From Candidatus Bathyarchaeia archaeon (lineage in GTDB: Archaea; Thermoproteota; Bathyarchaeia; Bathyarchaeales; Bathycorpusculaceae): a stretch of 64,000 nucleotides of DNA. Under the pieces are notes generated by a model that saw only the letters and a program-made list of their open reading frames with translations, was not told the DNA's origin and made no database searches. Both the position numbers and the translations under genes were made by a program. Within the stretch, counting starts at the first letter, position 1, and each line of letters starts with the position of its first letter. Location of the stretch: positions 16,017 to 80,016 of the forward strand of contig JBMFMB010000002.1 of assembly GCA_049970895.1 (NCBI GenBank), in the 5' to 3' direction. Of this stretch, positions 4,099 through 16,773 are shown piece by piece.

Positions 4099-5445
4099 TT
4101 AGCGGAGTTTCATCAGAACCATTTCAGCAGCTAAAACAAGGGGCTCCCAAGTCTCGTTTAGGGGCGGTGCGTAAGCCGTATCCGCCTTAGCCAATTCTCG
4201 TACAGTCATTTGCTTTTGTATGGCGAATGAGACAGCATTTATGCGTTGGGTTACCTCTTCCCCGCCTATAATTTGGGCTCCGATAATGCGCTGAGACTCC
4301 TTCTCCGCGATAAGCTTAACTTTTATTGGTAAGGCGCCAGGGTAATAGTCTGCCTTTGTCTTTGAGGTTATGGTTCCTACGACCGTTTCTATTCCAGCCC
4401 TTTTTGCCGCTGTCTCGGTCAAGCCTGTCGCTCCTATTTGCATATCGTATAGTTGGGTTACCGACGAGCCTATTACGCCTGGAAATAGTGCGTAGCCTCC
4501 CGCCGCATTTATTCCCGCCACTTTTCCTTGTCTTACAGCCACTGTTCCAAGCTGTTGGACGACTGGTTTTTGTGTGACAATGTGGATGGATTCTGCACAG
4601 TCGCCAACAGCGTAAACGTCTTTAACATTGGTTTCCATCCTTGCATTTGTCTTAATGAGTCTAGTTTCGCCTATTGCTATTCCGGCATCTACAGCAAGTT
4701 GTGTATTTGCCCTAACACCGAAGGCGCTGACAAAGAGGTCTGCGCTTATTTGTTCGCCTCCAGCCACTATGCCTGTCACTTTTTCTGTTCCGAGAAATTC
4801 TTCAACTGGTTTGTTGGTCATGATTCTTATGCCCTTCTTCTCCAGCTCTTCTTGGACGGTTTTGGCCATGTCTGCGTCAAGCATGGCTGGCAAAACTTGG
4901 GGTAGCATTTCCACAACTGTCACTTTTAAGCCCCTTTCTTGTAGGGCTACGGCTGTTTCCAAGCCTATGAGTCCAGCACCCATTACAACGGCTGTTTTTG
5001 CGCCTTCCTTTATTGATTGGTCTATTCGTTGTCCATCCTCAATTGTTCTTAGGGGCAAGATGCCTTGCTTTTCCCTTCCTTTTATTGGTGGTGTGAAAGC
5101 GCTGGCACCTGCGGCCATTATTAGGCTGTCGTAGGGGATTTCCTCCGTTTTTCCAGCCTTATCCACTGTTATGACTGCCTTTTTGCTGGTGTCTATTTTT
5201 GTCACTTTTGTTTCCGTTTTTAGGTTCAGTTTCATCATTTGGAAGTAGCTTGGCGGGAAGACTATGAGGTTGCTGAAGCTTGTTATTTGTCCGCCTATAA
5301 CGAAGGGTAAGCCGCATCTGGAGTAGCCGGCATACTTCTCGTCAGTTATTAGGGTTATTTCGGCTGTTCGGTCTGTTTTTCTAGCGGCTGAGGCTGCATC
5401 TACCCCGGCGGCATGCGCCCCAATTATTACTATGCGTCTCGGCAA
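4099..5445 (-). CDS. FAD-dependent pyridine nucleotide-disulfide oxidoreductase (NADH oxidase / CoA-disulfide reductase class)
   Basis: IGAHAAG FAD motif, single redox Cys in YSRCGLP, GAGLIGLE, YAVGDC, C-terminal YAPP. Confidence 0.9.
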   Translation of the reverse strand: MPRRIVIIGAHAAGVDAASAARKTDRTAEITLITDEKYAGYSRCGLPFVIGGQITSFSNLIVFPPSYFQMMKLNLKTETKVTKIDTSKKAVITVDKAGKTEEIPYDSLIMAAGASAFTPPIKGREKQGILPLRTIEDGQRIDQSIKEGAKTAVVMGAGLIGLETAVALQERGLKVTVVEMLPQVLPAMLDADMAKTVQEELEKKGIRIMTNKPVEEFLGTEKVTGIVAGGEQISADLFVSAFGVRANTQLAVDAGIAIGETRLIKTNARMETNVKDVYAVGDCAESIHIVTQKPVVQQLGTVAVRQGKVAGINAAGGYALFPGVIGSSVTQLYDMQIGATGLTETAAKRAGIETVVGTITSKTKADYYPGALPIKVKLIAEKESQRIIGAQIIGGEEVTQRINAVSFAIQKQMTVRELAKADTAYAPPLNETWEPLVLAAEMVLMKLR

Positions 5446-5448
5446 GGG

Positions 5449-5868
5449 CTACTTCCCTTCTTTAATTAGGCTTTTGTGCCACTCAACAGCCGCGTTAAAG
5501 TCCATTAGGTTTTTCAGTTCCGCCTGCAGGTTTGAGGGCTTTATAACGAGAAGCCAGCCCTTTCCATATGGGTCTTCATTTAGGAGTTCTGGTTTTGACT
5601 GGACTTCTGTGTTTACCTCTTCTATTGTTCCGCTTACTGGCGCCACAAGGTCTGATACGGCTTTTACTGATTCAACTGTGCCGTATGGCTCGTTCTGTTT
5701 TGTTGTGGTTCCCGGGCTTGGCAATTCCGCGTAAACAATTTCTCTTAGCTGTTTTTGGGCGTAGTCTGTTATGCCTACGCGGACTTTGTCTCCCTCAATT
5801 TTGAGCCATTCAAAATCCTTTGAATAATATAGTCCTTCTGGAACCTCGTATCCGTCAACTTTAACCAC
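5449..5868 (-). CDS. gcvH: Glycine cleavage H-protein family lipoyl carrier
   Basis: VGITDYAQ, GTVESVKAVSD (lipoyl Lys), LLNEDPYGKGWL. Confidence 0.95.
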   Translation of the reverse strand: MVKVDGYEVPEGLYYSKDFEWLKIEGDKVRVGITDYAQKQLREIVYAELPSPGTTTKQNEPYGTVESVKAVSDLVAPVSGTIEEVNTEVQSKPELLNEDPYGKGWLLVIKPSNLQAELKNLMDFNAAVEWHKSLIKEGK

Positions 5869-6219: not shown

Positions 6220-7725
6220 ATGGGAGAGCAGCTAAAAATAGCATGCGGGGTCTTCGGTGCAATAAATTTTGAAAGGCAGCCCATTTTCCCATATGTTTAT
6301 TGGGGTTTGAGGGCTCAGAATCATAGGGGACATCAGTCCCACGGCTTTCTTACATATGCTGATGGAAAATTCTATGTGCATAGAAGCCTAGACCTTGTGC
6401 CTAAAATAAAGACAAGCGCCCTCGAGGAGTGGTTTGGGCGTTTGCCAGGGCACATTGGGATAGGAAATGTTAGATACACAACTTCTGGGAAGACGGATGA
6501 AACGTCTCTTATAAGGGGCACCCAGCCTGTCACTGCTTCCAAAAACGGTTTAAGGTTGGCTATATCCTTTAACGGCAATGTCGTCAACACTTTTAAGCTT
6601 AAAAAGGTAATCTCCAAAGAGTTTCCAAACTTCTCTTATGAGTGCGACGCCGACCTCATCTGCCACAAACTCCTAATAGAGCTAGACAAGAGCAAAGATT
6701 TGGCTTCTGCCGTGAAATTGTGCATGCAGGAAGTTGAGGGTGCCTTTTCCGTTGCTGGAATAACTGGCGACGGCAAGTTTTTCGCTTTTAAAGACCCTTA
6801 TGGTATAAGGCCTCTCTGTGCTGGTCGTGGTGATGGGGGGAAAACCTATGCTTTTTCTTCTGAGAGTGTTGGTTTGGACATAAACGGTTTATGTCGGGTC
6901 TTTGAGGTGGAGCCCGGCGAATTCATAACGGTCTCCGAAGAGGGGTTTAGGCGTGAAAGGCTTGTAAATTCTGGGCGAAAAGCCTTTTGCGCCTTCGAGT
7001 TTGCCTATTTTGCCAGACCAGATTCCATTTTCGACAAGCGATATGTTTATGAGATTCGCGAGGAGTTTGGAAGAAACCTCGTGAGGGAGAACTCGGACAT
7101 TGTTAGGGATGCAGATATAATTATTTCTATGCCGGAAACTGGCGATGACGCTGCTTTTGGGGTTCATGAAGAGTCTGGTTTGAGGTGGGAGAGGGCAACC
7201 CGTAGGCATCGCTATGTGACTGAGCGTGCCTTCATACTGCTTAACAGGGAGCGTTACGCCACCATAGACAAGAAAATTAATATTTTAGCCTCAAAAGTAA
7301 ACGGTAAAAGGGTTATAGTGGTGGATGACAGCATCGTCAGAGGCGACACAACAAGGATTACTATTGAGAAGCTTCGCAGAATGGGCGCAAAGAAAGTCTA
7401 CTTATTTGTGACTTTCCCCCGCATAATTGGTCCATGCTTCTATGGAATAGACATGGCAACTTATGGGCAGCTCATTGGTGCAAAGCACACACCCGAAGAG
7501 ATAGCCAAAATTATAGGGGCGGATGCCGTCTGCTACCAGTCGATAGATGGACTTGTGAGGGCCACTGGCTTCAGAAGGGAAGAGTTATGCCTAGGCTGTT
7601 TAACTGGCGAATATCCAACGCCGCTGGCGCAGAAGATTGCGGATGAGATGAAGAAGAGGTTTTTGGAAGGCTTTGAGGAGACTGGAAGGCTTTATGAGAT
7701 TCCAGAGCTTGTTGGCGAGGATTAG
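6220..7725 (+). CDS. purF: Amidophosphoribosyltransferase
   Basis: CGVFG Ntn nucleophile after a short propeptide, QNHRG, RYTT, CAFEFAYFARPDS, VDDSIVRGDT, CFYGID. Confidence 0.96.
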   Translation: MGEQLKIACGVFGAINFERQPIFPYVYWGLRAQNHRGHQSHGFLTYADGKFYVHRSLDLVPKIKTSALEEWFGRLPGHIGIGNVRYTTSGKTDETSLIRGTQPVTASKNGLRLAISFNGNVVNTFKLKKVISKEFPNFSYECDADLICHKLLIELDKSKDLASAVKLCMQEVEGAFSVAGITGDGKFFAFKDPYGIRPLCAGRGDGGKTYAFSSESVGLDINGLCRVFEVEPGEFITVSEEGFRRERLVNSGRKAFCAFEFAYFARPDSIFDKRYVYEIREEFGRNLVRENSDIVRDADIIISMPETGDDAAFGVHEESGLRWERATRRHRYVTERAFILLNRERYATIDKKINILASKVNGKRVIVVDDSIVRGDTTRITIEKLRRMGAKKVYLFVTFPRIIGPCFYGIDMATYGQLIGAKHTPEEIAKIIGADAVCYQSIDGLVRATGFRREELCLGCLTGEYPTPLAQKIADEMKKRFLEGFEETGRLYEIPELVGED

Positions 7726-7776: not shown

Positions 7777-9201
7777 GTGTGGCAAATCTTGGTCGAAAAG
7801 GTTGGCATACTCGTAGTTTCTTACGGCGCCCGCGAAGTGGCAATGGTTGACGCTTTTTTGCGAAGCACAAAATACGATGTAGAGGTTTATGTTGCTGATA
7901 AACAGCGAAACCCGTTTAACATGAAAAACGCAACGGTGCACGTTGTTATACCAGACTTGAATGTTGAGGCTATATGCAAATTCACCGAAAAACATAAAGA
8001 CCGCATAGACTTCGGCATTGTCGGTCCAGAAAAGCCCATAATTGAGGGCGTCCGCAACCTTGTCGAGAAGCGCACTGGCATACCGATGATTTGTCCAACT
8101 AAAGAGTACGCAATAGAAGCCAGCAAAGTTCAACAGCGCCTGCTGTTCCAGGAGACTGCTCCAGAGGTGAATCCCCGCTTCCGAATCTTCCATCCAAAAG
8201 AGTTTAAAACACAGGAGGAGGCACGTAAAGCCCTTTACAAGTGGCTTGACGAGCTTGAAAATATGGCTGTTGTTAAGCCGGACAAGCCAGCAGCTGGCAA
8301 GGGTGTAGGCGTATGGGGAGACCACTTCACCACCCGCGAACAGCTCTTTGAGCATTTTTGGGAAAACCTGCGGCACGGTGCGGTTATAGTTGAAGAGAAA
8401 ATTGATGGTGAAGAATCCAGCTTCCAAGCTTTCTGTGATGGAAAGCACTTGGTGCCGCTTCCAGAAACGAGGGACTATAAACGCGCCTTCGACGATGACA
8501 AGGGTCCAAACACTGGCGGTATGGGCTCCTATAAGGATTCTGGCGAAATATTACCATTCATGATAGTGGCGGACAGAGAAAATGAGCTTGAAATCGTAAA
8601 CAAGATTTTTAGCAGGTGGAAAGCCCAAGACAACCAAGCCCTGAGAGGCATACCCTTCTACGTGGCTTTCATGCACACAGGCAAAGAGCCGAAAATCCTT
8701 GAGAACAACAGCCGCCCAGGCGACCCGGAAATAATTAACATTCTGCCAATTTTGAAGGATGACTTTGTTGATGTGTGCTTCAAAATTCTTGACGGCAACT
8801 TAACCCGCATAGAAATTGAGAGGATGGCAACAGTAGTGACCTATAAGGTGCCGCCAAGTTATGGAGGCTATGCCGAGGCTTTTCCAGAACGCGTGAATAG
8901 GGCGGAAATAGGCAAGCCAGTAGATCTAACAAAAGCCTATGAACTTGGCAGAAAGTATGGCGACAGAATTCGCGTTTATCCAGCTTCTATGGAGCTCCGC
9001 GACGGCAAAACCTACGCCCTAAAGTCTAGGGCTGTTTGTGTGGTTGGCATAGGCGAGACGATTGAGGATGCCAGAAAAATCTCCTTAGAGGGCATCAAAG
9101 CCATAAATGGCGGAGCTTTGTGGCACCGGAACGACATAGCCTCAAAACAGCATATAGAAAAGAGCATACGCCACATGGAGGCGCTCAGAAAACGAGGATG
9201 A
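7777..9201 (+). CDS. purD: Phosphoribosylamine--glycine ligase (divergent archaeal form)
   Basis: VGPE, IEASK, VVKPDKPAAGKGV, VEEKIDGEE, DYKRAFDDDKGPNTGGMGSY, RPGDPE, RNDIA. Confidence 0.93.
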   Translation: MWQILVEKVGILVVSYGAREVAMVDAFLRSTKYDVEVYVADKQRNPFNMKNATVHVVIPDLNVEAICKFTEKHKDRIDFGIVGPEKPIIEGVRNLVEKRTGIPMICPTKEYAIEASKVQQRLLFQETAPEVNPRFRIFHPKEFKTQEEARKALYKWLDELENMAVVKPDKPAAGKGVGVWGDHFTTREQLFEHFWENLRHGAVIVEEKIDGEESSFQAFCDGKHLVPLPETRDYKRAFDDDKGPNTGGMGSYKDSGEILPFMIVADRENELEIVNKIFSRWKAQDNQALRGIPFYVAFMHTGKEPKILENNSRPGDPEIINILPILKDDFVDVCFKILDGNLTRIEIERMATVVTYKVPPSYGGYAEAFPERVNRAEIGKPVDLTKAYELGRKYGDRIRVYPASMELRDGKTYALKSRAVCVVGIGETIEDARKISLEGIKAINGGALWHRNDIASKQHIEKSIRHMEALRKRG

Positions 9202-10280
9202 AAAAAGTTTTCATTTCGGACTGTGAGGGACCAGTTTCCAAGAATGATAACGCCTTTGAACTAACAGCCCATTACGTGCCTAACGGCGAGCACCTCTTCA
9301 CGGTTATAAGCCGATACGACGATGTGCTCGCAGATGTTGTTAAAAAGCCCGGCTATAAGGCTGGCGACACGCTGAAGCTTATACTGCCCTTTCTAAAGGC
9401 TTATGGCGTAACAGACCATAAAATGCAGAGTTTTTCTGCCAAGACGCTTCTGCTAATCGCTAATGTTAAGGAGAGTTTGGCTTTCATCCAGAAAGTTGCC
9501 CACGCCTTCATTGTTAGCACAAGCTACGAGCATTATGTTAGGGTGCTGTGCCAAGCTATAGACTTCCCTTTCAAGAAAGTTTACTGCACAAGAGTGAATA
9601 TTGACAAGTATTCGCTTAGCCAAAAAGAGCGGGATAGGCTTAGGGAAATTGCAGCCGAAATTGCCAAAATGCCAATAATCGAAATTCCGAAAGGTGCAAG
9701 CTCAATCCAAGACTTTCCCAAAGAGCACCAGCAAGTCATAAGGCGGCTTGATGAAATCTTCTGGGAAGAAATAGCCAAAATGCAGATTGGAAGAGTTTTC
9801 AAAGAGGTTAATCCTGTGGGCGGACGTGAAAAAACCGAGGCGGTTATGCAAATAGCCAAAAAGCTGGACATAAGCTTTTCAGAAATTGTTTATGTTGGCG
9901 ACAGCATAACCGACGTTGAAACCTTCAAAACAGTCCGCAACGCAAATGGCTTAACAATATCTTTCAATGGCAACGAATACGCCATAAGAGAGGCTGAAAT
10001 AGCCATAATGTCTGAAAAAGCCCTTGTAATAGCATTGCTAACAGCAGTTTTCTGCAAGTTTGGCAAAGAGGGCGTAATCGAGCTGGTAAACAACTGGAGC
10101 TTTGAAAGGCTTAGGGAGCTTGACGTGGACGCGGAACTGAAAAGTAAGTTTTTTGAGGCTTATGGCGAGAAACTTCCACATGTGGAAGTTATCACGGCGG
10201 CAAATATGGAGAGGCTGGCGGAGGAGAGCAAAGCCTTTCGCAAAACAGTTCGGGGCGAAGCAATAGGGCGTTTGGGCTAG
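9198..10280 (+). CDS. HAD-superfamily hydrolase, EhaR-like
   Basis: ATG at 9198 overlaps the purD stop (ATGA). Motifs SDCEGPVSKNDNAFEL, IVSTSY, GGREK, YVGDSITDV, SFNGNEYA. Confidence 0.8.
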   Translation: MKKVFISDCEGPVSKNDNAFELTAHYVPNGEHLFTVISRYDDVLADVVKKPGYKAGDTLKLILPFLKAYGVTDHKMQSFSAKTLLLIANVKESLAFIQKVAHAFIVSTSYEHYVRVLCQAIDFPFKKVYCTRVNIDKYSLSQKERDRLREIAAEIAKMPIIEIPKGASSIQDFPKEHQQVIRRLDEIFWEEIAKMQIGRVFKEVNPVGGREKTEAVMQIAKKLDISFSEIVYVGDSITDVETFKTVRNANGLTISFNGNEYAIREAEIAIMSEKALVIALLTAVFCKFGKEGVIELVNNWSFERLRELDVDAELKSKFFEAYGEKLPHVEVITAANMERLAEESKAFRKTVRGEAIGRLG

Positions 10281-10353
10281 GCTTGTCAAAGGTTTAATAG
10301 CCTAAAGCACCAACCTAAAATAATCCCAACGTGAAGCGTGGAGCGGAGGTCTC

Positions 10354-11265
10354 TTGGCGAAAAAGGAGCTTGTGGAGGATACTTACGCGGAAGCTTTCGA
10401 GGGTATCTACTGCCGAGTTGTCGTTACGGCTGATGATAAGGAAACTCTGCGGAAGGTGGCACTGCATGCAACAGCCACACCATCCATAGTCATCGGCAGA
10501 GTTGAAGGCGGAATAGAAAGGTGGCTGAGCGAAAAGGAAACACCAGACGAGCGCAAAGGTGTGATCCTCCAGTTCTGGGGTGGAATAGACCCCAAAAAAC
10601 CCTTTTCCGACTCCCTCAAAAAATTCGAAATTGAGCTCTCCTATCGTATAAGGCAGGATATCCTCGTGAAACCCTTCACGGCGGTTTTTGACGCCTTAGA
10701 GAATCCGCTGGGCAAAATTGACATGATGGAGCGTGTCGGCCACTGCGGGGACGGCTATGAGTGGGAGGAAAAACGCTACAACCGCCACGTCATAGTTGTG
10801 CCCATCATGGTTCCAGACTTCATAATAGAACGGTTTTTGGGCTATGCCCGCGGGGTTATGGGCGCGAACTTCTGGATAATGTGCAAGACAAAAGAGGCTG
10901 TTATGGAGGCTGGGGCAAAGGCTTTGGAAGCCATCCATAAAGTTGAAGGCGTAATAACGCCCTTCGACATTTGTTCCGCCGGTTCAAAACCCGAAACCCG
11001 CTATCCATGGATAGGACCGACGACAAACCACCCTTACTGTCCATCATTGAAGAGGCTGCTTGGCGAGGAGTCAAAGGTTCCAGAAGGCGTGAACTACATC
11101 CCGGAGATTGTGATAAACGGTGTTTCGCTTGAGGCTGTTAAAAGGGCTATGAAGGCTGGCATTGAGGCTGCATTAAAAGTGCGGGGTGTCGTGAAAATTT
11201 CAGCTGGAAATTATGGTGGAAAACTTGGCGATTACAAGATTCATTTGCGTGAGCTGTTCCCATGA
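10354..11265 (+). CDS. ftr: Formylmethanofuran--tetrahydromethanopterin formyltransferase-like protein (Ftr/EhaS-like)
   Basis: [52 protein letters not shown]. Confidence 0.9.
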
Positions 11266-12176
11266 AACGTTTTGACGTTATAGGTTTCGGCGCCCTAAAC
11301 GTGGACAAACTCTACAAGGTTAATAAGATAGCTGGACCAGAAGGGGAAGGCTTCATAAAAGGCTTCGAAGAGGCATGCGGAGGCTCGGCAGCCAACACCA
11401 TTGTGGGCTTGGCGAGGCTAGGCTGCAAAGTTGGCTTTATTGGGAAGGTTGCCAACGACCGCGAGGGCAAAATGCTGCTAGAAGATTTCCGCAAGGAAGG
11501 CGTAAACACAAAGGGCATTATAAGGGCGAAAACTGGACGAAGCGGAATAGTCATGGGCTTCGTAGATGAAATGGGCGAAAGAGCCTTATACGTGGACCCG
11601 GGCGTAAACGACACCATAAGCTTCGAAGAAATAGATTTGGGATATGCCTGCCAAGCAAAATTCATCCACTTAACGTCCTTTGTCGGCGAAATGTCCTTCG
11701 AAACCCAGAAAAGGCTTGTGAAAAACCTCCCAGAAGACGTTAAAGTAAGCCTAGACCCGGGCGAGCTTTATGCAAGAAAGGGCATAAAAGCCCTAAACCC
11801 AATTCTGGAGAGAACCTTTGTTTTTATGCCAAATTCTCGTGAGCTGGCACTCTTGACGGGCATGGAGGACCATGTTAAGGGTGCCGAAAAAATGTTGGGG
11901 CTTGGGGTGAAAATTGTTGCAGTCAAACTTAGCGGCAGAGGATGCTACGTCACAGATGGGAAGGAGAGCCACCACGTGGAAGCCTTCAAAGTGCACATTG
12001 TGGACACAACTGGTGCTGGAGACGCCTTTTGTGCTGGCTTCCTCTACGGCTTGTTAAACGCTAAAAGCCTAAAAGAGTGCGCAAGACTAGGCAATTTTGT
12101 TGCTTCCCGTTGCATAATGAAGATGGGTGCCCGCACTGGGCTTCCACGCCTAGAAGAATTAAAATTGCTTCTCTAA
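11262..12176 (+). CDS. PfkB/ribokinase-family (nucleoside) kinase, EhaT-like
   Basis: GGSAANT and [13 protein letters not shown] signatures; ATGA overlap with the ftr-like gene. Confidence 0.93.
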
Positions 12177-12977
12177 ATAGTCGATTAGGTTTTCGAAGAT
12201 TAGTTTTCCATCACCGTGTTGTGGCATAAGCCTCTGCCTTGTCCAGTCTGGCTGCTGCCACCAGTAGAAGGCTCTTTCTGGGTGGGGCATCAAGCCAAAA
12301 ACTGTTCCTTCTGGGTTGCATATGCCAGCAATGTCGTGGAAAGAGCCGTTTGGGTTTATTGGATAACGTCCCTCAGCATATGTGCCATCACTTGTGCAGT
12401 ATCTAAAAACCAGCTGGTCGTTTTCATAAAGCTTCTTCAAATACTGTTTTTCCTTTTCTTTGGCGAATAGGAATCTGCCCTCCGCGTGGGCGACCGGCAT
12501 GCGCAAAACCTTTCCTTTCGGAATTTTCCTCGTAAACACGCATTTGCCGTTGTTTTCGTGCCGTATGTAGACCCAGCGGCAATTATAGCCCGGAGGATGG
12601 TTTGTGGCTAGCGCCGCCTCTGGATAGGGGCTTATGCCATCAAATGCTGGAAGTAAGCCAGCCTCAACAAGCACTTGGAAACCATTGCATATGCCGAGAA
12701 TTGGGCGTCCCTCATCAACGAAAGCCTCCAACTCTTTGCCCATTTTTGAAAGCATCCACTTCGCCCAAATCGCGCCGGCACGCACATAATCCCCATAGGA
12801 GAAGCCGCCTGGAAAAACCAGAGCATGGTAATCCATAAGGTTTCGCCGCTTAACCACCTCATTCACGTGGAGAATTTGAGCTTGAACGCCTAAATCCTCA
12901 AAGGCTGTCTTTGTTTCAGCGTCGCAGTTTGTTCCGCCAACACGAAGAATACAGACTTTAATTTCTTCGCGTTTCAT
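12159..12977 (-). CDS. purQ: FGAM synthase glutaminase subunit
   Basis: GTNCD, PGGFSYGD, LGICNGFQ, HAEG, NPNGS, GLMPHPER. Confidence 0.98.
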   Translation of the reverse strand: MKREEIKVCILRVGGTNCDAETKTAFEDLGVQAQILHVNEVVKRRNLMDYHALVFPGGFSYGDYVRAGAIWAKWMLSKMGKELEAFVDEGRPILGICNGFQVLVEAGLLPAFDGISPYPEAALATNHPPGYNCRWVYIRHENNGKCVFTRKIPKGKVLRMPVAHAEGRFLFAKEKEKQYLKKLYENDQLVFRYCTSDGTYAEGRYPINPNGSFHDIAGICNPEGTVFGLMPHPERAFYWWQQPDWTRQRLMPQHGDGKLIFENLIDYLEKQF

Positions 12978-12978
12978 G

Positions 12979-15372
12979 TTAGGCTTCGCCACTGCCACTG
13001 CCGCTTAAGGTGTGCTTCCACCAAGCCAACAACTCACTTATGGACGCATCCACAACAACATTCCCATCCAAGCCATAAACACAAAGTTTTGGCGTAGCTG
13101 TAACTTTTCCAATTCTTGCAAAAGTGCATCCCCGCATAACAGCCTCAAAGTCCCTTTCGCATTTTTCCGGGACCTCCACGAGAAAGCGGCTATTAGATTC
13201 TGCGAAGAGAATGAAGTCGTTTCTTTTCAAGCCTTTTGTTGGGACAAGCCGCAAATCCAGTTCCATGCCATAGCCGCCGGAAAAAGCCATCTCCGCCGCC
13301 GCAACAGCCAATCCCCCTTCCGACAAGTCGTGGCAAGCATTAACCAAGCCATGGTCGATAGCCCTACCTATCGCCTTAAACGTTTTTCTGGCTTGGCTGA
13401 CCCGCACCTTAGGCACAGTTTTCCCAGCAAAACCCAACAGCCTATAATATTCTGAGCCGCCAAGCTCATGGTAGGTTTTGCCAACAATGTAGATGGAGCT
13501 GCCAGGCTCCTTAACATCCGACGAAACCACAACACGGATGTCTGGAATTATCCCAACAGCCGTTATCAGTAGCGTCGGCGTTACAGGACCAAGGGGCGAC
13601 TCATTGTATAGGCTGTCCTTACCAGAAATGAAAGGCGTCCCAAAGGCTTTAGCAAAATCATAGCAAGCCTCACAAGCCCTTACAAGACTTCCAAGCCTAT
13701 CTGGTTTTTCAGGATTACCCCACGTAAAATTGTCAAGGAGCGCTATTCTTCTTCCGCCGACAGCCACATTGTTCCTTAATGCCTCATCTATGGCTGAAGC
13801 CGCCATCCAGTATGGGTCAATCTTCCCATATTGCGGGTTTATGCCACAGGAAATCACCAGACCACGCCACGAATCTTTTAGAGGCTTTAGGACTGCCGCA
13901 TCATTTGGGCCGCCAAACTCCCCATGCAAGGGCTTTAGAACTGTGTTCCCCTTAACCTCATGGTCGTAAGTTCTGATGACGCTCTCCTTGCTGGCAATGT
14001 TCGGCGAAGAAAGCAGCCTCAAAACAGTGCTGGTCAAGTCTTTTGGTTCTGGTAAGGCTGGTTCCGTAAAAGCTGGTGGCTTATACTCGGCAACCCTAAC
14101 TGTTCGGGGCGGTTCGAAAAGGAATGAGATGTCCAGCTCAGCAACCTTTACTCCGCCATAATAAATGCGCAAAATCTTGTCATCAGTATACCGCCCAATA
14201 GCAGTGGCTTCAACATCCTCCCCCTCAAAAACCTCCAAAACCCGCGTAAGGTTTTCTGGCGGAACAGCTAAGAGCATCCTCTCTTGAGACTCGGAAATGT
14301 AAATTTCCCAAGGAGCCAAGCCCGGATATTTCAGCGGCACCTTTTCAAGCTCCACAACAGCACCGCAGCCAAAACGTTTGGCGGTTTCGCCAACAGCGGA
14401 GGATAAGCCGCCCCCACCAAGGTCTGTTATGGCTGAAGCTAACTCCAAATTCCTTATGGCGATTATTGCCCTCTTAAGCTTCTCCTCCTCAATGGGATTC
14501 GCAATTTGAACAGCTGGTCTGGAAACCTCCTCAGACTTTTCCGTTAACTCCGCAGAAGCAAAAGTAACCCCGTGGATGCCGTCTCTTCCAGTTTTTCCTC
14601 CAGCCAAAACAATAAAGTCGCCTGGTTTCGCGTTTCTCCTAAACTTTTTTAGTGGCAGAAGCCCGACGCATCCACAATAGACAACCACGTTGCCTATATA
14701 GCTCTCATCAAAGCATATGGCGCCATTAACCGTCGGTATCCCCATGTTATTGCCATAACTCCCAATACCAGCGACAACGCCCAAATACACGTATTTTGGA
14801 TGCTTAACCCCAGGCGGAAGCCTCTCATAAGGATAATCCAAAGGACCGAAGCCCAAAACATCCATACACGCAATCGGATCAGCCCAAACCCCCAAAATAT
14901 CGCGTATGACGCCACCTACACCAGTGGCTGCACCGCCAAAAGGCTCTATAGCTGAGGGGTGATTATGAGTTTCAACCTTCACGGCTATACCATAACCATT
15001 TTCAAAGCGTATTATACCCGCATTATCTTCAAAAACAGAAAAGCACCAGCGGGGATTAAGCTCCCTTGTAACTCTTGCAATATAAGTTTTGAAGAGGCTG
15101 TCAATCTCTTTCCCATCAAACTTTACTATGCCTTTAAAGGTTTTGTGAAAACAGTGCTCAGACCAAGTCTGCCCAAGGGTTTGGAGTTCAACATCTGTTG
15201 GATTTCTACCCTTCTCCTTAAAGTATTTTTGAACAGCCTGCATCTCTTCAAGGTTTAAACCCAAACCAAGCTCACGGCTAACATCCAACAACTGCTGGTC
15301 AGAGGCATAAGCCAAAGCCACTTCAAAAAGTGGGAAGGGTGTCTCCCTGCGAATGTAGAGGTTTCCGCTCAT
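12979..15372 (-). CDS. purL: FGAM synthase synthetase subunit
   Basis: WSEHC, ETHNHPSAIEPFGGAATGVGG, TGRDGIHG, DLGGGG, SESQERM, HDLSEGG. Confidence 0.98.
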   Translation of the reverse strand: MSGNLYIRRETPFPLFEVALAYASDQQLLDVSRELGLGLNLEEMQAVQKYFKEKGRNPTDVELQTLGQTWSEHCFHKTFKGIVKFDGKEIDSLFKTYIARVTRELNPRWCFSVFEDNAGIIRFENGYGIAVKVETHNHPSAIEPFGGAATGVGGVIRDILGVWADPIACMDVLGFGPLDYPYERLPPGVKHPKYVYLGVVAGIGSYGNNMGIPTVNGAICFDESYIGNVVVYCGCVGLLPLKKFRRNAKPGDFIVLAGGKTGRDGIHGVTFASAELTEKSEEVSRPAVQIANPIEEEKLKRAIIAIRNLELASAITDLGGGGLSSAVGETAKRFGCGAVVELEKVPLKYPGLAPWEIYISESQERMLLAVPPENLTRVLEVFEGEDVEATAIGRYTDDKILRIYYGGVKVAELDISFLFEPPRTVRVAEYKPPAFTEPALPEPKDLTSTVLRLLSSPNIASKESVIRTYDHEVKGNTVLKPLHGEFGGPNDAAVLKPLKDSWRGLVISCGINPQYGKIDPYWMAASAIDEALRNNVAVGGRRIALLDNFTWGNPEKPDRLGSLVRACEACYDFAKAFGTPFISGKDSLYNESPLGPVTPTLLITAVGIIPDIRVVVSSDVKEPGSSIYIVGKTYHELGGSEYYRLLGFAGKTVPKVRVSQARKTFKAIGRAIDHGLVNACHDLSEGGLAVAAAEMAFSGGYGMELDLRLVPTKGLKRNDFILFAESNSRFLVEVPEKCERDFEAVMRGCTFARIGKVTATPKLCVYGLDGNVVVDASISELLAWWKHTLSGSGSGEA

Positions 15373-15620
15373 CTTTCCTCCTCAACCATTATGGTGTAAT
15401 TGTCCTTTGTGGGGTTAGCCAAAAGCCTCTTACACATCTCCTCAGCCTTAGCCAAGGCTTCATCCCTAGAATCGGCTAAAACAATAACGCTGTAAACCTT
15501 GCTAACGCCAACCCTTTCAACTCTATAGCCAAGCTCCTTAAGCAAACGGGCTGTGGTTTCGCCTTCTGGGTCGCTGTGCCCCGGTTTCAAGCCAACCTCA
15601 ATTTTAAGACGATACCTCAT
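15369..15620 (-). CDS. purS: FGAM synthase subunit PurS
   Basis: LKPGHSDPEG...MCKRLLANP; overlaps the purL start. Confidence 0.95.
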   Translation of the reverse strand: MRYRLKIEVGLKPGHSDPEGETTARLLKELGYRVERVGVSKVYSVIVLADSRDEALAKAEEMCKRLLANPTKDNYTIMVEEER

Positions 15621-15675
15621 AGGCTAAATTAAACCCAAAGCCGATTTAAACACTTTCACCACAGAAAAGGCAAAC

Positions 15676-16773
15676 TTACCTTTTTAAAACAATTCTCCTA
15701 CCCTTATAAAAGATTCGGATTCCACGAGTACCCGTAACACGCCCAATCGCTTCGGCGTGCACCCCAGACCTTTCCAAAACGTCAACAGCCTTATCCACCT
15801 CTTGTTTTTCAACCACTATTGCAAAACCCCAACCCATATTAAAAGTCTTAAACATCTCCTCATCTGATATTTTGCCGCCAAGCTCGGAAGCAGCCCTCTG
15901 AATGACTTCAAAAATGGGCTGAGGCTTAAAATTGTCAAACTCAAAGCCTATACCCTTCGAGAAAAGCGTCAAACGGTCAAATTTTAAGTAGGCATCACCA
16001 GTAATATGCACAGCGGCCTTAACCCTAACCTCGTCTGCAACCCGCAGAAAAGGCTTAACATAAATTTTAGTGGGCTCTAAAACCTCATAAACCAATTCCC
16101 TTTCAAGAGGCTCAACAACGTCAAACTGGTCGTATCTACCACCCCAACACTTAAACAAAACCTTACGCGCCAAAGTCACACCATTGCTGTGGATTCCAGA
16201 ACTCCGCAGGCCAACAACAACATCGCCGGGCTTCAAATTCCTCCCATAAATAACCTTGTCTTTAGAAACTTCGCCAACAGAGGCAAAAACCATGTCAAAA
16301 CCCTTCCCCTCCGCCAAACCCCTAATCAACTCGGCAACATCACCAATCTCACCGCCCGGAACAACACATTCAGCCTCCACGGCACCTTTCACTATACCCT
16401 TCATCCACTCCCTAACCAAAACCGGATCAGAAACCTGAGCGTGAATATTATCCACAACAGCCAAAGGCCTAGCCCCGGAACGAATAACATCATTAACAGC
16501 CATAGCCACACCATCAACACCAATAGTATCATATTTGTCGGCCAACTGAGCCACCAAAACCTTAGTGCCAACCCCCTCCACCACAAGATCCAAAAAATAG
16601 CCATCACGAAAAGGAAAAATCACACCATAAGGAAGCCGCACAACCCCACCATAACGACTAAAACCATAAGTCCTCCGCAAAAGACGCAAAGCACCTTTCG
16701 CCCTCGTCCTCAACCCCCTATCAACACCGGCACCAGCATAAGTAAAATCCCTACGCAACAATAATCCTCCCAA
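15676..16773 (-). CDS. purM: AIR synthase (phosphoribosylformylglycinamidine cyclo-ligase)
   Basis: TYAGAGVD, EGVGTK, AMAVND, GGE, SSGIHSNG, HITG, TFNMGWG. Confidence 0.95.
   Translation of the reverse strand: MGGLLLRRDFTYAGAGVDRGLRTRAKGALRLLRRTYGFSRYGGVVRLPYGVIFPFRDGYFLDLVVEGVGTKVLVAQLADKYDTIGVDGVAMAVNDVIRSGARPLAVVDNIHAQVSDPVLVREWMKGIVKGAVEAECVVPGGEIGDVAELIRGLAEGKGFDMVFASVGEVSKDKVIYGRNLKPGDVVVGLRSSGIHSNGVTLARKVLFKCWGGRYDQFDVVEPLERELVYEVLEPTKIYVKPFLRVADEVRVKAAVHITGDAYLKFDRLTLFSKGIGFEFDNFKPQPIFEVIQRAASELGGKISDEEMFKTFNMGWGFAIVVEKQEVDKAVDVLERSGVHAEAIGRVTGTRGIRIFYKGRRIVLKR

Follow-up and report, generated by a model that had tools for sequence, protein, structure and literature searches.

A candidate GAR-formylation module comprising an Ftr paralog, a HAD-fold protein and a PfkB-family kinase in a Bathyarchaeia purine gene cluster

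Formylation of GAR, the third step of purine synthesis, is carried out by the folate-dependent PurN or the formate/ATP-dependent PurT, neither of which needs a HAD-fold protein or a kinase. Since 2011, several archaea have been described as missing an enzyme for this step. The original prediction for the present locus had noted that some archaea lack purN and purT, and such a gap is indeed published for Archaeoglobi, Methanobacteriales and Methanopyrus (PMC3261824). PMC9012536 describes a clade of uncharacterised Ftr2 proteins in the same three groups and in ANME-1. Methanothermobacter carries ehaR-ehaS-ehaT at the end of its ehaA-T operon; the initial annotation of EhaS was as an Ftr and that of EhaT as a ribokinase, and the trio is described as co-transcribed with the hydrogenase operon (Kaster et al., 2011; PMC3087415). 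Structures have been solved for Ftr1 (1FTR/2FHJ/2FHK, 1M5H and 1M5S) and for FhcD (6S6Y), in which Glu252 is a protonated residue that stabilises the tetrahedral oxyanion (PMC6926001). Here we describe a trio of the EhaR, EhaS and EhaT families that is the best candidate for the missing purine step.

The window, a stretch of 64,000 nucleotides from a Bathyarchaeia genome that is 97% complete, was annotated using open reading frames and Pfam/NCBIfam profile matches. On the forward strand, purF (6220..7725; amidophosphoribosyltransferase, step 1; TIGR01134 318.6 bits, GATase_7) and purD (7777..9201; GAR synthetase, step 2; GARS_N/A/C) are followed by the genes for an EhaR-like HAD-IB fold protein (9198..10280; HAD PF12710 30.2 bits), an EhaS-like Ftr paralog, Ftr2 (10354..11265; FTR PF01913 149.7 bits, FTR_C PF02741 204.1 bits), and an EhaT-like PfkB/ribokinase-family kinase (11262..12176; PfkB PF00294 179.7 bits). 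Facing this set on the reverse strand are purQ (12159..12998; step 4, glutaminase subunit; GATase_5 237.3 bits), purL (12979..15372; step 4, FGAM synthetase; AIRS, AIRS_C and FGAR-AT_linker), purS (15369..15620; step 4, small subunit; PurS PF02700 71.5 bits) and purM (15676..16773; step 5, AIR synthetase; AIRS/AIRS_C). The profile matches bear out the predicted cluster of steps 1, 2, 4 and 5 around the trio, and the sequence itself shows the predicted ATGA overlaps at the purD stop/HAD start and the Ftr2 stop/PfkB start. The start codon of Ftr2 is TTG, preceded by GGAGG. The purD product is divergent (TIGR00877 256.6 bits, below the curated cut-off of 288) and is the sole PurD match in the genome. 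Upstream of the locus lie genes for PGK, GAPDH, an Lpd-like flavoprotein and GcvH, and downstream those for RsmH and DUF401; as predicted, no fwd, mch or mtd genes adjoin the trio in these flanks.

The three families stand in the same order as in Methanothermobacter EhaR-EhaS-EhaT. This likeness, drawn from annotation, had been pointed out in the original prediction and holds through the JGI name for close relatives of the HAD protein, 'energy-converting hydrogenase A subunit R', and through the annotations in PMC3087415. Unlike the Methanothermobacter trio, the present one belongs to a lineage that is not methanogenic, lies in a pur cluster and has no hydrogenase operon, and no hydrogenase genes were found near the trio in the flanks here or at 23 related Bathyarchaeia loci. 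Assignment of the window proteins as Eha hydrogenase subunits was rejected on the basis of these flanks and of a bacterial counterpart described below.

A profile search of the host genome returned no PurN candidate, and the top match to the PurT model reached 38.2 bits, compared with a cut-off of 502. Two Ftr homologs were found, Ftr2 in the window and a canonical Ftr1 on a separate contig (C16), so that Ftr2 is not the sole Ftr of its host. FwdA and Mch are encoded on a contig other than that of the trio; formate-THF ligase was searched for in the genome and not found. The presence of FwdA, Mch and Ftr1 suggests that formyl donors are available for Ftr2.

Ftr2 belongs to the Ftr family over its full length, with the FTR N-lobe and the FTR_C proximal lobe, and scores 354.5 bits against NF002554 (cut-off 297) and 181–186 bits against solved Ftrs. 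However, it falls below the fhcD equivalog cut-off (TIGR03119, 242.5 vs. 292.6 bits) and shares 37% identity with the host Ftr1, being a second paralog rather than an ortholog of the characterised enzymes. The two paralogs share 46 invariant positions and differ at 15 class-discriminating positions, including C131 and the 209–223 loop. As predicted, the motif [15 protein letters not shown] stands in Ftr2 where the host Ftr1 and the Ftrs in the PDB have GFATSVIM.PAEAG. E251 of the EIVING motif, invariant in 16 Ftr2 and 6 Ftr1 sequences, aligns with the oxyanion-stabilising Glu of 6S6Y_D, 1FTR and 1M5S. Across genomes, Ftr2-type genes score 334–569 bits and Ftr1-type genes 146–207 bits. Ftr2 thus has the fold and the oxyanion Glu of Ftr1 and FhcD, but its genomic company is purine genes rather than fwd/mch. 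We consider it a candidate GAR (or GAR-riboside) formyltransferase; in contrast to PurN and PurT, its fold is unrelated, its donor would presumably be bound to methanofuran or H4MPT, and it is accompanied by both a HAD protein and a kinase.

The EhaR-like protein has an ortholog-level match (117 bits) to AF1437 of Archaeoglobus fulgidus (1Y8A), a structural-genomics 'hypothetical protein', and its predicted structure (pLDDT 96.4) superposes on 1Y8A with a TM-score of 0.81. HAD motifs I–IV are conserved (D8, S107/S109, K212, D235 and D239 in alignments of 50 and 122 sequences), although motif I is DxE rather than DxD, with an invariant Glu (E10) at position +2. After AF1437, the nearest solved folds are HAD-IB enzymes of the phosphoserine-phosphatase type, not 5'-nucleotidases, and they include ThrH, a phosphotransferase. 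Identity with SerB itself was rejected (TIGR00338 27.3 bits vs. a cut-off of 144; TM ≤0.48). These features suggest that the protein probably hydrolyses or transfers phosphate, and does so on the acceptor/product side of the formylation. The EhaT-like protein is a member of the PfkB/ribokinase family in which NxD and GG..N, which we take to bind the sugar, and DTxGAGD, presumably catalytic, align with solved ribokinases; ribokinase proper (RbsK) was rejected (TIGR02152 171.7 vs. a cut-off of 299.65 bits). Salmonella aminoimidazole riboside kinase, also of the PfkB family, converts a purine-intermediate riboside to the ribotide and is a precedent for such a kinase, a likeness drawn from its description; unlike EhaT, it is a salvage enzyme outside any formylation module.

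The distribution of the trio was profiled in one phylum, on 201 genomes of Thermoproteota with a completeness of 80% or more, with counts conditioned on PurD (137/201). Among these 137 genomes, 24 carry the EhaR trio, 65 PurN only, 44 a PurT-like gene only, one PurN and a PurT-like gene, and three neither; in two of these three, the PurD match is a fragment at the end of a contig. PurN or PurT-like genes occurred together with the trio in none of the 24 genomes, so the predicted anticorrelation was complete in this sample. PurT-like genes were called at E ≤ 1e-60, the curated cut-off being reached in 0/201 genomes, and 24 of the 46 calls scored just 206–267 bits; 14 of the 65 PurN-only genomes match below the cut-off, at 118–127 bits, and these matches (family f17) could be PurU-like. 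As the EhaR-positive archaeal genomes all belong to one class, the clean partition depends on few independent events, namely the switch in f6 between genera g18 and g19 and the formyltransferase swap in f7. EhaR was found in 25 of 28 Bathyarchaeia genomes, Ftr2-type genes in 23 of these 25, and PurD directly upstream of EhaR in 22. The order purD-EhaR-Ftr2-PfkB is colinear in 16 of 23 other EhaR-positive genomes and is broken by contig ends in three more. Both PurD-positive Bathyarchaeia without EhaR have a PurT-like gene, and a third EhaR-negative genome jointly lacks PurD, Ftr2 and the EhaT-type kinase; one EhaR-negative genome, with 4% contamination (G282), contains a partial Ftr2-like stretch.

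The formyltransferase part of the module is interchangeable. In the two EhaR-positive Bathyarchaeia without Ftr2, a PurN-like gene adjoins purD, and EhaR and a PfkB are present. Furthermore, in many Dehalococcoidia and Armatimonadota, a divergent PurN-like enzyme takes the place of Ftr2 beside EhaR-like and EhaT-like genes. PurN-like and EhaR-like proteins are encoded together in 223 stretches from species-representative genomes; 50 bacterial genomes with both contain no PurN over the cut-off and no PurT, while PurD is present in 44. In a sample of 131 Dehalococcoidia genomes, 13 have canonical PurN and 31 have EhaR, with no overlap, and none of the 31 has canonical PurN or PurT. An EhaT-like PfkB, at 200–269 bits to the window kinase, adjoins the module in 37 of 80 retained bacterial loci. 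Fusions join the PurN-like enzyme to EhaR (P0182, P0278 and P0279), to PfkB (P0273) and to PHP, a second, unrelated phosphoesterase (P0277), which also occurs adjacent to it, and a PurT/PurK-type ATP-grasp protein to EhaR (P0211 and P0212). All 80 bacterial loci lack pur genes within 10 kb of the module.

We favour, as a probable explanation of this comparative pattern, a purine step-3 module in which Ftr2 would replace PurN/PurT as a second, Ftr-fold kind of formyltransferase and EhaR and EhaT would act on the ribose-5'-phosphate end. That the module supplies GAR formylation is very probable from the genomic comparisons, in line with the predicted role of the trio. Ftr2 would transfer the formyl group of formyl-methanofuran or N5-formyl-H4MPT, the C1 carriers of the host, to the glycinamide amine, giving the formylglycinamide product that PurLQS needs. 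N5-formyl-H4MPT is a weak formyl donor, which counts against the proposal. EhaR and EhaT would be independent of the donor, working with Ftr2 in organisms that use H4MPT or methanofuran and with a divergent PurN-like enzyme elsewhere; since they are kept whichever non-canonical formyltransferase is present, the ribose-5'-phosphate end of acceptor or product is their most likely site of action. We infer GAR as the substrate, as well as the formyl donor and the chemistry of the HAD protein and the kinase.

Within this explanation, a plausible, tentatively held sub-hypothesis is an obligatory riboside detour, in which EhaR would convert GAR to its riboside, the formyltransferase would form the formyl-riboside, and EhaT would use one ATP to give FGAR. 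The gene order purD-HAD-Ftr2-kinase matches the proposed reaction order, the HAD catalytic residues and the 5-OH kinase motifs of ribokinases are conserved, and all three parts occur in every Bathyarchaeia genome that could be examined. The detour is also favoured by retention of HAD and kinase where a PurN-like enzyme substitutes for Ftr2, by the formyltransferase-HAD and kinase-formyltransferase fusions, by the absence of EhaR from genomes with canonical PurN/PurT, as if it were needed by non-canonical enzymes alone, and by the PHP associations, including PHP-formyltransferase-PfkB strings without EhaR in four genomes. However, the scheme is weakened because some bacterial genomes have the formyltransferase and EhaR but no EhaT-type kinase: 23 of the 31 EhaR-positive Dehalococcoidia have this kinase and eight do not (E ≤ 1e-40), and in five of these eight that were examined the PfkB-family genes score just 38–69 bits against EhaT-like kinases. 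Orthologous PurN-like enzymes also occupy the same syntenic slot without EhaR, PHP or PfkB nearby, and the position of PHP next to them may reflect a gene order inherited within Dehalococcoidia. Moreover, the reaction would already be pulled by PurL, making the need for an extra ATP not obvious, and the EhaR fold neighbours are not 5'-nucleotidases. A dispensable kinase would be expected if GAR were formylated directly, with EhaR binding the phosphate to present or channel GAR, perhaps by way of a short-lived aspartyl-phosphate like that of phosphomutases, and EhaT merely rescuing escaped riboside. This would account for the strict coupling and fusion of formyltransferase and EhaR alongside a patchy kinase, for the translational coupling of purD and EhaR, and for the DxE variant, and ThrH among the fold neighbours is in keeping with it; we nevertheless regard it as doubtful, the complete catalytic set of EhaR pointing to turnover over mere binding.

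A role outside purine step 3 appears quite unlikely, whether in serine supply with EhaR as a phosphoserine phosphatase, in ribose/PRPP supply, in methanofuran/H4MPT synthesis or in the Eha hydrogenase. SerB-type enzymes are among the EhaR fold neighbours, the host has no SerB over the cut-off, its EhaR-like protein being the top match to the SerB model (27.7 bits), and a ribokinase-like EhaT could feed PRPP. However, bona fide SerB stands beside EhaR in four EhaR-positive genomes and does not track it, and a supply role leaves the exclusive pairing with non-canonical formyltransferases and the exclusion of PurN/PurT unexplained. A cofactor role fits poorly with Dehalococcoidia and Armatimonadota, where the partner is PurN-like. 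The Methanothermobacter co-transcription and the distance of the bacterial modules from pur genes are counter-points to the step-3 module and favour another pathway, but a hydrogenase role is at odds with the flanks at the 24 loci. The location of the trio in pur clusters of organisms that are not methanogens, together with the existence of a counterpart in bacteria, supports the prediction that EhaRST belong to purine synthesis and not to the hydrogenase.

Archaeoglobi, the host group of AF1437, the ortholog-level match of EhaR, are among the archaea without PurN and PurT (PMC3261824).

The trio, composed of an EhaR-like HAD protein, an EhaS-like Ftr paralog (Ftr2) and an EhaT-like PfkB kinase, lies within a purine biosynthesis cluster. 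On the forward strand, the open reading frames of purF (6220–7725), purD (7777–9201), the HAD-fold gene (9198–10280, 360 aa), the Ftr-family gene (10354–11265, 303 aa) and the PfkB kinase gene (11262–12176, 304 aa) follow one another, and purQ, purL, purS and purM (12159–16773) are convergent with them on the reverse strand. Steps 1, 2, 4 and 5 of the pathway are clustered together and a recognisable enzyme for step 3, the formylation of GAR by PurN (folate) or PurT (formate/ATP), is missing. The original prediction placed the trio in this step-3 position, and each point it observed was borne out by the open reading frames and profiles, including the ATGA overlaps at purD/HAD and Ftr/PfkB, which were read in the window sequence. 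Genes of glycolysis and glycine cleavage border the cluster at one end, and RsmH and DUF401 at the other; neither hydrogenase genes nor, as already noted in the original prediction, fwd, mch or mtd genes adjoin it. Divergent from purF, the reverse strand at 4099–5868 encodes an Lpd-like flavoprotein and an H protein of the glycine-cleavage system, and therefore glycine/C1 genes stand beside a glycine-consuming purine operon.

The genome to which the window (C2:16017–80016) belongs is assembled into 1.34 Mb on 79 contigs and is 97% complete; where close relatives of the window's proteins carry a name, it is Candidatus Bathyarchaeia. Searching it returned zero candidates for PurN, a best PurT match of 38.2 bits against a cut-off of 502, and a second, canonical Ftr on contig C16 (186 bits to PF01913, 37% identity to the window Ftr2), all as the original prediction would have it. 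In addition, FwdA (835.5 bits) and Mch (424 bits) are neighbours on contig C22, and formate-THF ligase was not found in this genome; together with the canonical Ftr, this result points to MFR/H4MPT C1 chemistry in the organism. A PurP-type domain for the later purine formylation was also found.

The distribution of the trio was evaluated in 201 Thermoproteota genomes of at least 80% completeness, drawn identically for every query, with thresholds of E ≤ 1e-25 for PurN, E ≤ 1e-40 for PurD and E ≤ 1e-60 for PurT-like proteins, where control genomes with only PurK give no match. EhaR-like proteins were present in 25 genomes, all Bathyarchaeia (25/28 of the class), PurT-like proteins in 46, none of which reaches the curated cut-off, PurN in 69 (55 above the curated cut-off; 14 matching at just 118–127 bits) and PurD in 137. 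Counts were conditioned on PurD, which excludes organisms without the purine pathway from the denominator. The 137 PurD-positive genomes were thereby divided into 24 with EhaR, 65 with PurN only, 44 with a PurT-like protein only, one with both and three with neither, two of which hold only PurD fragments at contig ends. The anticorrelation foreseen in the original prediction was observed, with PurN or PurT in 0 of the 24 genomes carrying both EhaR and PurD, and the independent events behind it are few because all trio genomes of the sample fall in one class. Among the 64 genomes without PurD, an EhaR fragment occurs in one, PurN in three and PurT in one. Moreover, two PurD-positive, EhaR-negative Bathyarchaeia of one genus carry a PurT-like gene and a sister genus within their family carries the trio, and the single Bathyarchaeia genome without PurD is also without Ftr2 and the EhaT-type kinase. 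Of the 25 EhaR-positive genomes, 23 have an Ftr2-type gene (at least 58% identity); outside these, there is only one partial Ftr2-like stretch in the contaminated assembly G282, an EhaR-negative genome with a PurT-like gene and 4% contamination. This stretch (contig C129, 5551–5982; 72% identity over residues 119–264, inside a 471-aa open frame) may reflect contamination or a fusion.

Gene order links the trio to purD. In 16 of 23 loci fetched around EhaR, purD, EhaR, Ftr2 and PfkB stand in line, three further loci end at a contig edge inside Ftr2, and in nine the cluster is as complete as in the window, purF and purQLSM included. Two genomes have both the purD-EhaR and the Ftr2-PfkB pair, but at separate places, and the gene immediately preceding EhaR is purD in 22 of 25 genomes. 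PurD itself scores 206–270 bits in EhaR-positive Bathyarchaeia (window 7777–9201 and loci L112–L132), under the TIGR00877 cut-off of 288, and 370–376 bits in two EhaR-negative Bathyarchaeia; PurD proteins of other Thermoproteota are mostly over the cut-off (108/137).

The EhaR-like HAD protein belongs to a distinct family, with 646 representatives at E ≤ 1e-3 and 242 at E ≤ 1e-30 in a search space of 1.84 billion protein representatives. The family is represented structurally by AF1437 of Archaeoglobus fulgidus (PDB 1Y8A, 117 bits), to which the predicted model (pLDDT 96.4) aligned with a TM of 0.81; the next fold neighbours are the HAD-IB enzymes SerB, ThrH and MtnX (TM ≤ 0.48). The HAD catalytic set (D8, S107/S109, K212, D235 and D239) is kept, and so are family-specific residues that include two C-terminal arginines; position +2 is always Glu. 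Ftr2 shows the Ftr fold over its full length and scores 181–186 bits against solved Ftrs (1M5S, 1M5H and 1FTR). Its E251, invariant in 16 Ftr2 sequences, aligns with Glu252 of FhcD, described in PMC6926001 as the stabiliser of the tetrahedral oxyanion. Comparison with six Bathyarchaeia sequences of the canonical enzyme, Ftr1, gave 46 positions invariant in both classes and 15 fixed differently, mostly in the 209–223 loop and at C131. Since E251 is invariant while these 15 positions differ, Ftr2 has likely retained formyl-transfer catalysis with substrate pockets different from those of Ftr1. A modelled complex of EhaR and Ftr2, scored 0.00 in a run without controls, carries no weight for or against their association. 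The EhaT-like kinase is ribokinase-like and under every equivalog cut-off, and retains the NxD, GG..N and DTxGAGD motifs of solved ribokinases; kinases of the bacterial module loci score 200–269 bits to the window kinase, versus about 105 bits for solved ribokinases.

The formyltransferase of the module is interchangeable. The two EhaR-positive Bathyarchaeia without Ftr2 have only an Ftr1-type gene, and they carry a divergent PurN-like gene adjoining purD, with EhaR and PfkB about 12 kb away. Furthermore, three representatives of the EhaR family are fusions. P0182 has a PurN-like N-terminal domain, and in the PDB it matches nine GAR transformylases best after AF1437; among relatives of this domain, the fusion partner is EhaR in P0278 and P0279, a PfkB kinase in P0273 and a PHP phosphoesterase in P0277. 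By NCBI names, EhaR fusions of this PurN-like type belong to Dehalococcoidia. P0211 and P0212 (900–970 aa) join an ATP-grasp region of about 590 aa to a C-terminal EhaR-like domain. An identification of this region as PurT was rejected (33 bits to NF006766; PDB PurT at E = 0.06–0.38), hence its weak match is described as PurT/PurK-type. The neighbours of such ATP-grasp–EhaR fusions in metagenomic loci L137 (10001–12895) and L138 (10001–12913) are uninformative for function, and the DUF505 and archaeal-type AspRS genes nearby suggest an archaeal host.

In bacteria, 223 stretches combining PurN-like and EhaR-like genes were found in species-representative genomes, and the 80 loci kept belong to Dehalococcoidia, other Chloroflexota, Armatimonadota/Fervidibacter and one 'Deltaproteobacteria' MAG. 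The order is PHP-formyltransferase-EhaR in 39 of these loci, the same followed by PfkB in 27, and formyltransferase-EhaR-PfkB in eight; three are true formyltransferase–EhaR fusions and three have other arrangements. No pur genes lie within 10 kb of the module in the 80 loci. Among 50 module-carrying genomes, picked for longer contigs from 76 listed, PurN over the cut-off and PurT were found in none and PurD in 44, and the PurN-family genes comprise the module's own and an Fmt-sized gene, with no others. PurD of bacterial carriers is canonical at > 500 bits. In G035, the module has a near-full-length PurN-like or PurU-like gene (locus L064, 7862–8737; 117 bits, below the cut-off) 2 kb away. 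Among 131 evenly sampled Dehalococcoidia, canonical PurN occurs in 13 genomes and EhaR in 31, with no co-occurrence. The EhaT-like kinase is present in 27 of the 131, of which 23 have EhaR and four without it have PHP-formyltransferase-PfkB strings. Eight of the 31 EhaR-positive genomes are without an EhaT-type kinase, and the five examined hold just generic PfkB proteins (38–69 bits). PurN-like enzymes also occur without EhaR or kinase in the same slot, pepP-efp-PHP-FT followed by clpP-tig-aspS. In a quick tree, the EhaR-linked enzymes form approximately one clade plus an Armatimonadota clade, a pattern compatible both with and without a specificity shift, and with either an obligatory or an accessory EhaR. 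In the same tree, a PurN-like gene of G246, from a low-GC Bathyarchaeia family (locus L134, 17699–18535), falls, on a long branch, within the EhaR-linked clade of Dehalococcoidia, which suggests transfer between domains.

The proposed assignment of the trio to step 3 is well supported by these independent comparative lines. The strongest argument that the module is devoted to GAR formylation is the exclusion of EhaR from genomes with canonical PurN or PurT; therefore, the non-canonical enzymes appear to need something extra. What varies with the C1 cofactor is the formyltransferase, and the HAD protein and kinase are constant. The formyltransferase is of the Ftr fold where MFR/H4MPT is made and of the PurN fold in bacterial lineages; because the HAD protein and kinase stay constant while it changes, they would, by elimination, act on the acceptor or product common to all versions.

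How they would do so allows several readings. An obligatory detour through the riboside, the scheme of the original prediction, in which GAR is dephosphorylated by the HAD protein, formylated and rephosphorylated by the kinase to FGAR, fits the exclusion of EhaR from canonical PurN/PurT genomes, but the EhaR-positive Dehalococcoidia without an EhaT-type kinase and the PurN-like enzymes that fill the same syntenic slot without either partner weigh against it; it is plausible, though less likely than not. In the other mechanism retained, EhaR would be a phosphate-binding or phosphate-holding partner and EhaT a rescue kinase. A minor rival, that EhaR is the missing phosphoserine phosphatase, draws on the SerB-type enzymes among its fold neighbours and on the own genome, which has no SerB over the cut-off and where EhaR is the top SerB-model match at 27.7 bits, the others being P-type ATPases; however, four EhaR-positive genomes have SerB over the cut-off, and SerB does not track EhaR over the 201 genomes. 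Returning to step 3, we tentatively envisage a cycle of three enzymes in which the intermediate has lost its phosphate, or in which the HAD aspartate holds this phosphate for the time being. Phosphatase, donor-specific formyltransferase and ribokinase-type kinase would then form a portable cassette, whose formyltransferase slot was filled at least twice (Ftr-fold with MFR/H4MPT; PurN-fold with folate) and possibly a third time (ATP-grasp with formate), used by Bathyarchaeia, Asgard archaea, several euryarchaeal orders, Dehalococcoidia and Armatimonadota. Such a cassette would be a new route rather than merely a new enzyme.

Brown et al. (2011; PMC3261824) report purN and purT absent from two Archaeoglobi, four Methanobacteriales-type species and Methanopyrus kandleri, with pathways otherwise intact. 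Ftr2 paralogs, as yet uncharacterised, are described for ANME-1, ANME-2a/b, Archaeoglobales, M. kandleri and Methanothermobacter by Chadwick et al. (2022; PMC9012536), who also give PurN and PurT as missing from ANME-1, Archaeoglobales and Methanobacteriales, two observations not joined in the available text. The supplements of both papers may give per-genome gene calls bearing on the phyletic claim. As far as the available sources indicate, GAR formylation has stood in print since 2011 as the sole de novo purine step for which Methanobacteriales, Archaeoglobi, Methanopyrus and ANME-1 have no assigned enzyme, and our counts place the same gap in most Bathyarchaeia. In the literature searched, which covered main texts outside subscription journals, there was no prior assignment of trio function. 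To the extent of the look-ups made, the fusions, the occurrence in bacteria and the counts conditioned on PurD are new. In Kaster et al. (2011; PMC3087415), EhaS and EhaT are taken as hydrogenase subunits because of co-transcription, a role contradicted for EhaR/S/T by gene context here and in bacteria. If the step-3 assignment is true, these 'hydrogenase subunits' become purine enzymes, and an Ftr-fold GAR formyltransferase would make a direct connection between nucleotide synthesis and the C1 pool of methanofuran/H4MPT. The presence of EhaRST on the anaplerotic Eha operon would be accounted for as well, since formyl groups drawn for purines would need replenishing. A widespread annotation would be corrected and a gap closed in metabolic models of methanogens, methanotrophs and abundant sediment archaea. 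Folate dependence is probable for the PurN-like version of bacteria, and therefore the question is testable in E. coli purN purT mutants.

A PHP phosphoesterase gene (CehA/McbA-type, 76 bits; for example locus L091, 7165–9636) immediately precedes the PurN-like gene in 69 of the 80 bacterial loci (L007–L086). Replacement of EhaR by this protein was considered and not established, as those 69 loci have EhaR as well and PHP-FT is part of a conserved Dehalococcoidia block; the link may reflect the synteny of pepP-efp-PHP-FT rather than function. The own genome has two PHP homologs, on contigs C15 and C6, away from the trio.
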